Source of the DNA: Octopus sinensis
Taxonomy: Eukaryota
Direction of reading: 5' to 3'
Length of the DNA: 64,000 bases
Assembly (NCBI RefSeq): GCF_006345805.1
Contig: NC_043010.1
Span: forward strand, 51,336,001-51,400,000
Part shown: piece by piece, positions 12,154 to 62,795 of the stretch
How the letters are laid out: every line of letters starts with the position of its first letter
How positions within the stretch are numbered: position 1 is the first letter of the stretch
Made by a program: the position numbers and the translations under genes
Notes under the pieces: model-generated
Told to the model about the DNA's origin: nothing
The model's input: only the letters and a program-made list of their open reading frames with translations
Databases searched by the model: none

Positions 12154-12494
12154 CTGGAAGATAAAAAATGTTGTAAGGGTAACAATATACAGAGGCAATA
12201 CTGAAAACATGTAATCACAGTATAAACACAACACCACCAACAATAAACAACACAACTGACAGTAGACAACACAACAGGTTTTAAACAATACAATGAGCAA
12301 TGAACAGCACAATGGACTGTTAACAACATAATGAACAGTGAACAATACAACAGGCAGTAAAAATTGCAATGAACAGTAAACAATGCAATGAACAATAAAC
12401 CCATCCCAATCACATTGCAAACAATGAAATGAACCCACTTTTATGCCTGGTGCTTTCCTATCAGTCTCTTTTGCTGAACCACAAAGTTGTTGTT

Positions 12495-32500: not shown

Positions 32501-34526
32501 TTATCGAACATTGAGAGAGCCATCACGCAACAGTCCTGCGGGCAATTGGATAAACTACAAGTGTTTATGTGCAAGAATGTTCCAGAACCTTTGTGTAAGG
32601 TCATGGACATTGTCCTTCTTCCAAACTTTAAAAAAAAAAAAATTACCCTTTTTTTTTTCCCTTGCTGATGGAAGAATTATTTTCTTTTTGAAATAAAATT
32701 CAGTAGGTACAAGCATGGCTGTGTGTTCGAGGGGTTCACTTTGCAACATGCTTTCAGGTTCAGGCCCACTTAATGGCATCTTCAATGGGTATTGTCTACT
32801 GCAGCCATTGGAAATCAATGCCTTGTGACTGAATGTGGTTGACAGAAACTGTATGGAAGCCAGTCATGCGTGTGTTTGGGCATGCACATGCTTGTGTCTT
32901 CTACAACCCCAGGCCAACTGAATGCTACTTGAGGGAATGTGGTTCACAGAAACGGTGTGGAAACAGTGTAGAGGCAGTGAGCTGGCAGAAATGTTAGCAC
33001 GCCGGGCAAAATGCTTAGTGGTATTTTGTCTGCTGCTACGTTCTGAGTTCAAATTCCGAGGTCGACTTTGCCTTTCATCCTTTCGGGGTTGATTAAATAA
33101 GTACCAGTTATGCACTGGGGTCAATATAATCGACTTAACCCATTTGTCTGTCCATGTTTGTCCCCTCTGTGTGTAGCTCCTTGTGGGCAGTAAAGAAATA
33201 AGAAACGGTGTGGATGCTTGTTGTACATGTGTGTGTGTGTGCATGTGCACTGTCTTCTACTACAGCCCAAATGCCACTTGAATGAATGTGGTTGACGGAA
33301 ACTGTGCAGAAGCCTGCCATATGTATGTGGTGGTGTGGAGTGTACATGCTTGTGTGTCTTCTACTACAACCCCAGGTCAATCAAATGCCACTTGAGCGAA
33401 TACAGTTGGTGGAAACTGTGTGGAAGCTTGTCATGTGTGTGCGCATACCTGCTTGCATTTTGAGGGTGTGCTTGTGTCTATCTTCAACTACAGCACCAGG
33501 CTTGTGTGTGTGTGTTTATGTGTATTTCTCTCTCACTGCTTGTTTGCTGAATAATCCTTTCTTATAGCTTCCTGAATATTTTGATACAGTTGACAGCCAC
33601 TTCTCAGAAAGAAAAGGTCAAATGAGGCTCTTGTTCACAGAAATTCTTTTAAAAAAAAATGTATATTCTGCCCAGTCAACTAAATGACATTTGTTGTAAG
33701 GTTGCAACCTTAATCTTATAAATCTGCAAATCCACTCAACTATTGAAGATTGCACTTTATATTTCAATTGTTTATGCTCTTGTTTAACCCCAGGTCAACA
33801 ATGAGTCAAGAAAACCATGATCAAAAGCGTTCCCTTTATCAATATTGTTGTGTCAGGCTGTGAGCTGGCAGAGAAGTTCGAATGCCAGGCAAAATGCTTT
33901 GCAGCTTTTTATTCATCTTTGCATTCTGAGTTCAAATTCTGCCGAGGTCAACTTTGCCTTTCATTCTTTCGGGGTTGATAAAATAAGTACCAGTTGGGTA
34001 TTTGGATTGATGTAATCGACTTACCCACCCACCACCCCTGGCCTTGTGCCAAAATTTGAAATCAATATCTTGTACGTGTGTGTATGTTCTCTCAAACATA
34101 TTCAGTTTCCGTTGTTGGTTGAGAGTGATTAAAGAGATATGTGGTTGCTATTTGTAAGTAATGAATTGACTAAAAGATGTCAGGGAAAAGTCATTGGGAG
34201 GAAAGAAATAAGGAAACAAAAACTATTTTAAATCAGTTATTAACTGACAGTACATAATTTATATATGATGCATTTACACATGTGCGGGAAAAAAATCTTG
34301 TATTCAATTTTTTAAGCAAAGGAAGACCAAAAAAAAATTTCAGTCATTTATTGGCAATACACGACACGTACAGATTAAAAATGCTTTACACAGTAGAAAT
34401 ATCATTATTTCTAATTCTCTATAAAGGGGACTACAGCAGTGGTACTGGATATTAATAGTTATTGCCAAGCTAACATCTATCTGGACTGCTATGTTAGCTT
34501 AGCGATAACTATTAATATCCAGTACC

Positions 34527-34757
34527 TATTTCTTTACTAACCACAAGGGGCTAAATACAGAAAGGACAAACAAGGACAGACAAACGGATTAAGTCGATTA
34601 TATCGACCCCAGTGCGTAACTGGTACTTATTTAATCGACCCCGAAAGGATGAAAGGCAAAGTCGACCTCGGTGGAATTTGAACTCAGAACGTAGCGGCAG
34701 ACGAAATACTGCTAAGCATCTCGCCCGGTGTGCTAACGTTTCTGCCAGCTCGCCGCC
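34527..34757 (-). mobile_element. SINE family B (tRNA-like head, Meta-SINE-like central domain)
   Basis: ggcggcgagctggcagaa...gagttcaaattcc..cgaggtcgactttgcctttcatcctttcggggtcg. Other copies at 32971-33202 and 56823-57054. Confidence 0.85.
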
Positions 34758-34909
34758 TTATTAATATCCAATACCACTGCCGTAGTCTCCTTCAGAGAGA
34801 ATTAGAAATGTTATTTCTATTTTTGAAAACCAGTGGATGTATTCCACTGAATTTAGGTAAATAATCCTTCGAACAGATGATCAGCAGTGCTCTTTCTGGG
34901 GTCGGCTGC

Positions 34910-34952
34910 TCTACATTGATAAGGGGCAAATACCCCGAAACTAGTCTGTAGA
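34910..34952 (+). ncRNA. Minimal type-I hammerhead ribozyme motif, U3:A8 variant
   Basis: tctaca-TTGATAA-gggg-caaata-cccc-GAA-ACTAGT-C-tgtaga. Stems I and II perfect, stem III palindromic, GUC triplet. Confidence 0.75.
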
Positions 34953-36714
34953 TGCCAGACCAGCAAGGAGAAGCTGCTGACCTTCCCTGTTCGAAGGTTA
35001 TAATGGACACAGGTTTGTGTGTCACATAGCTAGCTAGAGGCGATGGCCTCTTGGAGCTAATCAATGGCAGCATTCGTCCTATCTATCTGGACTGTCATGT
35101 TAGCTTGGCAATAACTATTAATATACTTTACACAGTATTGTGGCATTGCGTGAATATTTAGTATTTTTAATGTTGACAACTAAGACGTATATTCCAGTCC
35201 ACACCACCAAGAAACTCTGCCAGGCCCGTCAATCAACACACAAATGTAAGAAGGTGTTCTTGTAGCTACACATAACTATTTTTTTCCAGTGACATTTTTT
35301 TTTCCTGGATTTGACTAATATCATCCACTACCAAAATCGTAAATTCTTGGCTAATTTATTTAATGCTCCTTGCATTAAACAATGTGAATAAAACTTTATT
35401 TACTGATATACACTTTAAAAAGATGCTAAAAAAAAAAGAGAAAACTGGGGGTGGGTAAGGTAGGAGCAGCCGAAGACGGAAAGGCAAGGGCGATAGGTCA
35501 CATATCCCAGAACAAGAGGGGTGCTCAGCCACACCACGCAGTAATGAATGTGATGGCGTTGCCAAGGAGAATGGTTAGCGACACTCGCTGCAGTAGTCAC
35601 TTCACCTTGAGGGGCTCATTTCTCAGACAGGCTGCCGTTATCGCTATTGTGTAGAGGAAATCGGTGGTACGAGGTCTTAGAACACCTGTTGTCTTGACAG
35701 CAACCAGTCAGGTTCCTGTACTTATTTTCCTCTTCTCTGCGTTATGGGCAGTGATACGGGGGTTTGTGACAGATGCATTAAATACAGTTCTGTGGTGTTA
35801 TGAGCCAGGCTGTGTTGTAGGGAAGGATCGGAAGTGAGGGAGTAAGTATGTCCTGTTGGAAGTGGGGCCTGTGGGTCCCACCTGAAGGGCTGTGGTGGGC
35901 ATGCGAGGTCAGTGAAGTGTGAGAGCAAGTTGGTGGCGAACAGCGCATTAGAGCAGACCATGCAAATTGAGACAGAGCATGTGGACATTGAAAGTGACCC
36001 TTTTTCTGGACCGACAGGTAAGGCTACTGCACTTCTCTCTTTGCTTCCATTTTTTTGTTCCTTTACATCACAAGTTCGACACCAGCTTACCAAATATGTT
36101 AAATCATTGAGTAGCAAACCGTAGCATCGCCTTTTAAACCGAAGTACACACATAAACTTATGTTACTTTCATCTGCCATGGATGGCTTTGACAATACATC
36201 AATAACCTACATTACATCAGAGACGTATCACGGTGAAAGAAAAAGGTGAAGGGAGTTCATCTGTACTTTTAGCTGTTATATATACACTATATTATTGACA
36301 AGAGACATCGAACAAAAAAGTTAAATCTCTCAAATCACACAATTAGGTCATTAAAACATTAGGAGAAATACAAGTGATATGTCTGAAAAATAAAATCAGA
36401 TGGGAAAATCACAGATGCAGCACTGTTGATCAATAAGGAACATTTGTGATCTGGGCTGACTTGAATCTAAGCAACATATATATATTATTTGTATGACTAT
36501 TTAGCCACACAAAAGTTACATTATTTTAAACAAAGCTATCACTAACATGAAATCTTATTCACTGGGTTAACTAGAGTGTGGTAGGTTTGACTACCGACAT
36601 ATCAAATGTAAAACGAAATTATTTAAGTACCAACAGAGGTAGATTTCTACGTGGTCGTTTGACCTGTTATAAATAGCGGCCAAATTTTCCTTAAATCTCT
36701 TATTATTATTATTA

Positions 36715-62405: not shown

Positions 62406-62795
62406 GGTTAGCCATGATAAGATGGCTTCTATACTTTACATTATCGAGCGATTACTGTTTCAATCTCATTCTGAGATTTAATTATGCTTACTGTTCGTTT
62501 TTCGACATCAGTGGCAGATGCCATTAGAAAAACATATCTATTTGCAAAGGAGCCTTCTCTTTCATCGCTACCTGGTGGTTACCGCCCGTTGACGAGGGAC
62601 AAAAATCCCGAAACTAGTTCGAGCGTATCACTCAGGCTTGCGAGGAAGGGATGGCCTCCCTTTGCAAATACTCCAAGGACACAGATATTGTGTCTAAAGC
62701 CAGCTAGAGACGAAGATCTCTTGGGGCTATAAAGCTACAGTAACACCCCCTCCCCAATGTGGTTAGCCATGATAAGATGGCTTCTATACTTTACA
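62406..62795 (+). mobile_element. Hammerhead-bearing 355-bp retrozyme/Penelope-like unit with 35-bp perfect terminal direct repeat
   Basis: ggttagccatgataagatggcttctatactttaca at 62406 and 62761; hammerhead motif at 62583-62625. Confidence 0.75.
62583..62625 (+). ncRNA. Minimal type-I hammerhead ribozyme motif, U3:G8 variant
   Basis: cgcccg-TTGACGA-ggga-caaaaa-tccc-GAA-ACTAGT-T-cgagcg. Confidence 0.65.

Follow-up and report, generated by a model that had tools for sequence, protein, structure and literature searches.

A 64,000-bp stretch of the Octopus sinensis genome (NCBI RefSeq assembly GCF_006345805.1, contig NC_043010.1, positions 51,336,001 to 51,400,000 of the forward strand; hereafter the window, with positions counted from its first letter) carries a hammerhead-bearing repeat element of ~1.1 repeat units plus an inverted arm, interrupted by a short interspersed nuclear element (SINE) and enclosed by a perfect 12-bp target-site duplication (TSD). 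The two unstranded TSD copies, both CTTTACACAGTA, lie at 34384–34395 on the left and 35126–35137 on the right. Next to the left copy, an 81-bp 5'-truncated arm on the minus strand (34396–34476) crosses the unit junction, lacks the hammerhead and stops at the second of two 3' ends preferred in the family, with a tail of ~50–55 nt. It stands head to head with a 52-bp, 5'-truncated partial repeat on the plus strand (34475–34526), a partial tandem like those of Penelope pseudo-long terminal repeats (pLTRs). The full monomer, also on the plus strand, follows at 34759–35125 (357 bp here, 361 bp in the family; 43% GC) and ends at the first preferred 3' end. Between the two repeats, a 232-bp SINE on the minus strand (34527–34758) was inserted later and is flanked by its own 17-bp TSD (34510–34526 and 34759–34775, one mismatch). 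Its tRNA-like A and B boxes were recognized by eye only and its contig depth is very high; ARAGORN, and Rfam at gathering thresholds, gave no match anywhere in the window, SINE included. The SINE insertion point coincides with the unit junction beside the first preferred 3' end (34510–34526), possibly by chance in an AT-rich site. No open reading frame (ORF) of at least 120 aa overlaps the element at 34384–35137. Partial tandem, inverted 5'-truncated copy and optional 3' tail, the marks of a Penelope-type insertion, are all present, and the ~85-bp inverted 5' copy and Penelope-typical anatomy described in an earlier note on this locus are confirmed. Candidate TSDs of 12–14 bp also occur at three other loci (L004, L009, and L017), whereas many further loci end in microsatellites and are unreadable. 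The TTTACA found at the end of this element and of a second hammerhead unit in the window (62406–62795) was rejected as homology, being target DNA here and replaced by other letters after other ends of the same family.

The full monomer contains a type I hammerhead motif on the plus strand (34910–34952). Helix I (34910–34915/34947–34952, 6 bp) encloses the core UUGAUAA at 34916–34922, read as U3 U4 G5 A6 U7 A8 A9, and helix II (4 bp) with its loop CAAAUA spans 34923–34936, followed by GAAA (34937–34940, contributing G12–A14 and A15.1) and the palindromic ACUAGU at 34940–34945 (including U16.1). Cleavage is predicted after C17 at 34946, at a GUC site; GAAACTAGTC holds C17. None of the 12 core positions is altered, helices I and II are complete and the 3:8 pair is Watson-Crick, as the earlier note had read it. 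Judged from its letters, the motif is a genuine type I hammerhead motif with a compensated U3:A8 pair and predicted cleavage. Helix III comprises 2 bp, or 1 bp plus a palindromic tetraloop, and gives no covariation signal of its own because it is invariant. It hardly closes in the monomer (2-nt loop), and two copies of the 10-nt region cofold at −6.2 kcal/mol. The isolated motif has a folding z of only −1.2 to −1.4; the monomer folded as a circle is predicted to be highly self-paired (minimum free energy −120.1, z −5.96 against 40 shuffles). Rfam hammerhead models, run at gathering thresholds only, gave 0 matches in the window. The minimal hammerhead of Penelope elements (min-HHR) has a helix II of 7–8 bp, a short helix I and an extra nucleotide before helix II; the window motif, with helices I and II of 6 and 4 bp and no extra nucleotide, is not of this kind. 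Two hairpins lie downstream on the plus strand and recur in the 62406 unit, as had been claimed. The first, GACACA/TGTGTC (35006–35023), is conserved in the four families A–D defined below, with 94% of alignment cells paired and double changes in 3/6 pairs; the second, AGCT..AGAGGC/GCCTCT..AGCT (35028–35058), has 75–79% of cells paired and keeps its register better in families A and B than in C and D.

A search of the 2.7-Gb genome with the unit returned 2548 candidate places, and the 40 best scored include 39 other near-full-length copies, 87–91% identical (family A). Units tile head to tail at a fixed 357–365-bp period, with dimers and tetramers that hold no ORF between units. Subtracting the SINE and its 17-bp TSD (249 bp) from the 606-bp repeat offset gives 357 bp, as the earlier note calculated; the arithmetic stands, but as a family period this value does not, since 15/17 spacings are 361 bp (the other two being 362 bp and an unrelated 70 bp). 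The shorter spacing in the window is due to a private 4-bp loss. The family A motif has 516 exact matches genome-wide against 0 for a reversed-pattern control and is therefore not a chance pattern. The first 100 matches listed, read by eye, divide into 98 with U3:A8 and two with C3•A8, and loop 3 is palindromic in 95 of them; of 30 close copies, 29 have U at position 3 and 29 have A at position 8. U3:A8 is thus the state of the family and not the product of decay from a C3:G8 consensus, the outcome that would have spoken against the original interpretation. Loop 3 is palindromic in 24/30 and 22/30 unselected motif matches (25% expected), and along the tree of family A its central dinucleotide goes from TA via AT to GC. 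Across families A–D it moves among TA, AT, GC, and CG by double changes while staying palindromic within subfamilies. Genome-wide, counting motifs with a 14-nt spacer (copies, not independent events) against reversed controls, U3:A8 is the commonest core (2897/145), ahead of C3:G8 (1661/39), U3•G8 (546/63), and C3•A8 (414/68). These patterns exceed their controls 6- to 43-fold, and paired 3:8 states outnumber unpaired ones by 4558 to 960.

Covariation was scored in 20 hand-picked related sequences from families A–D. Double changes occur in 21/30 pairs, including 6/6 of helix I, 4/4 of helix II, the 3:8 pair and the loop-3 dinucleotide, and the score of 0.482 compares with 0.227 in shuffled alignments (reached in 0/500) and at most 0.136 when the pairing is slid. 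G5, A6, G12, A13, A14, A15.1, C15.2, G16.2, and U16.1 are invariant throughout. The compensatory changes that the earlier note had proposed are hence real and accompanied by significant covariation.

The second unit in the window, on the plus strand at 62406–62795, had been assigned to the same family with a different repeat phase, and neither assignment holds. It is a much younger copy of a sister family, B (355 bp here, family period 357 bp), with a U3•G8 core and a GUU site. Its identity to the 34393 unit is 63.5% (shuffled mean 55%, maximum 60%), and it falls in a clade of its own in a tree of 69/153 segments (the rest being 25 family B rows removed by subsampling and 59 segments without homology over 250 nt) whose long inter-family branches were flagged as unreliable; kinship exists only at the level of a superfamily. 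The supposed phase difference reflects mostly different 5' truncations, the 3' ends of the two units aligning within ~10 nt. Family B copies, tandems included, are 96–98% identical, and their loci read TTGACGA in 41/48 and GUU in 48/48 cores, some overlapping loci being counted twice. Families A and B each have two preferred 3' ends ~50–55 nt apart and nearly in register. Scripted labels for 63 ends gave 24 at the first end, 17 at the tail end and 22 read-throughs; re-reading revealed five mislabelled ends and shifted the first two classes to ~20 and ~18. An upstream inverted piece accompanies 14/30 family A and 17/30 family B loci.

Taken together, the window element is very probably a dispersed, ~5%-diverged copy of a 361-bp protein-free U3:A8 hammerhead family, likely a non-LTR (long terminal repeat) retrozyme inserted by Penelope-like proteins. 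The repeat unit, its copy number, the TSD, the inverted arm, the two preferred 3' ends, the covariation and the presence in this genome of autonomous elements with reverse transcriptase (RT) and GIY-YIG endonuclease are the observations behind this reading. Metazoan non-LTR retrozymes have been described with 350–390-bp repeats in molluscs, Mytilus included (Cervera and de la Pena 2020, PMC7229834), and their link to Penelope elements has been argued by Li et al. (bioRxiv 10.64898/2026.07.22.740005). As in those systems, the octopus unit is ORF-free, within 150–450 bp (361 bp), below 50% GC (43%), arranged head to tail in partial and full tandems, equipped with a type I hammerhead and flanked at the window locus by a TSD of more than 4 bp (12 bp), its predicted circle is highly self-paired, and Penelope elements coexist with it. 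It differs in that the main core is U3:A8 and not C3:G8, and in that most loci hold 1–1.5 units with Penelope-style inversions in place of long tandems. The weak helix III of 1 bp plus a palindromic tetraloop is of the type described in amphibian retrozymes, and in axolotl it needs dimers (PMC7229834). Circular RNA is a feature of the described retrozymes; the octopus family is known here from DNA. With Penelope-like elements and their pLTR hammerheads (PMC4209133, PMC8557442, PMC11167929) the family shares the partial tandem, the inverted 5'-truncated copy, the optional 3' tail from two RT starts, the palindromic helix III and the U3-A8 variant, whereas the octopus unit holds no RT/GIY-YIG ORF, its helices of 6 and 4 bp are canonical and not those of the min-HHR and its tail is ~50–55 nt long.

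A model consistent with this anatomy would begin with source tandem loci transcribed into multimers, in which two hammerheads would pair through ACUAGU, their helix III palindrome, and cleave behind GUC, releasing monomers that are possibly circularized by a host ligase. A Penelope RT/endonuclease would then nick both target strands 12 nt apart, each nick would prime reverse transcription at one of two internal starts ~50–55 nt apart, and the two truncated cDNAs would join head to head, producing inverted arm, tail, and 12-bp TSD. The SINE would have been inserted afterwards. The anole Penelope protein does cut and extend both target strands and uses two internal RT starts that define the tail (PMC11167929), and inverted plus tail anatomy is standard in Penelope (PMC8557442); together, two-strand extension and two starts would account for the arm at one site, the sense end at the other and the 12-bp TSD. 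Several points weigh against this reading. The tail of ~50–55 nt is longer than the published 30–40 nt; few loci are able to form a circle, since the majority carry at most one hammerhead; the covariation counts come from related, hand-picked sequences and are not independent events; and the two autonomous Penelope families discussed below offer no partner for the units. In addition, the core is unpaired in the most recent subfamily of B, so that spreading may not require efficient cleavage.

This last point leads to the strongest competing view, that the hammerhead is vestigial throughout the lineage and serves as a structural handle for the Penelope protein, catalysis being dispensable; we consider it improbable, although mismatched cores have been amplified. 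Among the 100 of 299 family B motifs that were listed and read by eye, 75 are U3•G8 (74 with GUU) and 25 are U3:A8 (19 GUC, five GUU, one GUA). GUU cleaves more slowly than GUC. In a tree of 22/42 family B rows and three outgroups, rooted with family D, a ladder runs from U3:A8/GUC through U3:A8/GUU to U3•G8/GUU. The family B loci (window 62406–62795; L031–L060, L205–L224) represent the youngest group, mostly U3•G8/GUU and nested in older U3:A8/GUC copies. The 100 of 268 family D motifs listed comprise 65 U3:A8, 27 C3:G8, seven C3•A8, and one U3•G8, and in the family D tree (29 rows, two outgroups) a C3 clade (support 100/99) is nested in U3:A8 rows and splits into C3:G8 and C3•A8. The C3•A8 group unites ten rows from seven loci (support 87/87; one row reads A3), namely L121–L124, L135, L136, and L203, tandem dimers included, as sister to the C3:G8 subfamily. 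Approximately unbiased (AU) tests reject the U3:A8 rows as a single clade in family B (p 0.0011) and family D (p 0.0005). In both trees, groups were named after the trees had been seen, core columns were kept, loci were hand-picked from pattern lists and outgroups sit on long branches. Besides the amplified U3•G8/GUU and C3•A8 subfamilies, the vestigial view gains from the finding that anole Penelope elements with catalytic hammerhead mutations still insert in vitro, insertion being independent of cleavage there (PMC11167929). Against it stand the nine invariant positions, the genome-wide dominance of paired states, the return of family D to C3:G8 and the loop-3 palindrome preserved through double changes. 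Single changes at most hammerhead core positions sharply lower activity, according to a general statement in PMC3088659. It is conceivable, if rather doubtful, that the superfamily records the 3:8 pair crossing a fitness valley in vivo, with U3:A8 ancestors leading in B via GUU to U3•G8, the youngest and by now largest of its subfamilies, and in D to C3 with C3•A8 and a restored C3:G8, while mismatched cores spread by dispensable, protein-assisted or trans cleavage. Equally tentatively, intact relatives could on that account cut mismatched ones in trans via a common helix I and a palindromic helix III that would serve as a dimer barcode specific to each family (ACUAGU, ACAUGU, ACGCGU, ACCGGU). 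C3•A8 could alternatively derive from C3:G8 through a single CpG change in a founder.

Less probable still is an origin of the unit as a pLTR, solo or partial, left over from the 3' end of an autonomous Penelope element, in place of independent mobilization as a retrozyme. Penelope copies are strongly 5'-truncated and have the same inverted and tail anatomy (PMC8557442), and autonomous elements in this genome also carry U3:A8 hammerheads. One young autonomous family (L200–L202, ~4.4-kb tandem units) encodes a 784-aa RVT_1 plus GIY-YIG ORF, the GIY-YIG match just under the Pfam cut-off, between 335-bp direct repeats that bear their own U3:A8 hammerhead (GUA site). Upstream, a second long ORF occupies a different frame. 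A second GIY-YIG family (L170–L199) has, in 15/30 loci, an internal hammerhead-like U3•G8 motif (by pattern) that precedes the endonuclease region by ~500 bp. One GIY-YIG family was searched genome-wide, the best 150 of 19719 candidates being scored. Units A–D have no blastn match to three loci of the 784-aa family, its pLTR included, and only short or insertion-derived matches among 30 loci of the second. GIY-YIG ORFs near L026, L070, and L078 were rejected as partners, having no terminal repeat in common with units A–D. The window copy itself holds no RT plus GIY-YIG ORF of the kind that marks an autonomous Penelope-like element. The fixed 357–365-bp head-to-tail period, dimers and tetramers without an intervening ORF and the fall of flank coverage by other loci outside the unit, unrelated common repeats aside (eight loci profiled), speak against a pLTR remnant.

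Whether the window copy still works, regulating its host gene or an antisense RNA, depends on its setting and its age. The host gene has coding exons on the minus strand at 12159–12031, 8878–8711, 6877–6650, and 4956–3001, and the closest exon upstream of these is found 6.8 kb past the end of the window, so that both repeats are antisense within one ~59-kb intron. The antisense, intronic position given in the earlier note is thus correct, but "intron 1" depends on the gene model, one of which places further coding sequence upstream of that exon. Outside the window, the gene's short upstream exon lies at L137:6815–6838, and a minisatellite at L138:1293–1641 is read by one protein model as coding N-terminal repeats. 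The protein has a CARD_2 domain (E 5e-8), a weak Death match and, by eye, a hydrophobic C-terminus, and one host exon shares 99% identity with a protein of Octopus vulgaris; Pfam found no match in the last exon alone. MAVS has a CARD at its N-terminus and a membrane anchor at its C-terminus, and from the domain layout the gene is a reasonable MAVS-like candidate.

Retention of the copy as a functional ribozyme acting on this CARD/Death-domain gene or on an antisense RNA appears very unlikely. In its favor, neither the 12-position core nor the two helices have been damaged, and a contig from a sample with a different organism code covers the left junction (34225–34458), so that the insertion is common to that other sample. 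The copy differs by 5.8% from the family column majority, its closest copies share 88–91% identity with it, against 96–98% in the 62406 family, and its terminal branch of 0.051 compares with 0.003–0.018 in most family B rows and 0.006 in a young family A tandem. Core changes among 30 copies (10/360, 2.8%) match the background (290/8896, 3.3%), meaning that the core decays no slower and that an intact core is expected at this age; the core is intact in 20 of the 30 close copies, and core, stems and palindrome are all perfect in ten. The hammerhead is antisense to the host pre-mRNA, which carries its non-catalytic complement, and the presumed SINE promoter points away from the ribozyme. With one hammerhead only, the window copy cannot excise a circle and lacks the two consecutive hammerhead units by which the 2026 preprint defines an active retrozyme; relatives such as L126, L046, and L122 have them. 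Monomer cleavage of the window hammerhead may occur by analogy with coral and mussel retrozyme monomers, which did cleave (PMC7229834). Contigs from 4/24 sequencing runs, two of them guessed to be RNA, include family-like contigs over the unit at low depth, the SINE swamping the joint table; one contig jumps back from 35119 to 34772, a joint that also exists as tandem DNA. Most likely, then, the window copy is inert, having one ribozyme, no partner in cis and an orientation antisense to the host gene, and its description as the best candidate for a still-active ribozyme does not survive these comparisons. A fortuitous resemblance to a hammerhead within an ordinary satellite or SINE-like repeat, for which the absent Rfam match at gathering thresholds and the modest z of the isolated motif might speak, is ruled out by the compensatory changes in every variable hammerhead pair and by the pattern controls.

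The U3:A8 core itself is already in print, Penelope elements included: natural U3-A8 hammerheads with the identical compensatory pair were reported as active in vitro (Perreault et al. 2011, PMC3088659), and the core occurs in ~1,300 Schistosoma mansoni Penelope motifs (PMC4209133). It is rare in the former report, whereas it accounts for the majority of 14-nt-spacer motifs in octopus, where each of the two mismatched states has also been amplified. In the literature covered, which was incomplete and whose supplements may list octopus motifs, neither octopus retrozymes nor amplified families with U3•G8 or C3•A8 cores turned up. The window element is real and well formed, yet an ordinary and old member of a retrozyme-type family; as a single locus it matters little, since hundreds of copies resemble it and its core variant has been published. 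The series of mismatched-core subfamilies is of greater interest: subfamilies in all four 3:8 states, together with four helix III palindromes, form a natural, dated series, and this set of families makes it testable whether a Penelope-dependent element needs hammerhead cleavage to spread.

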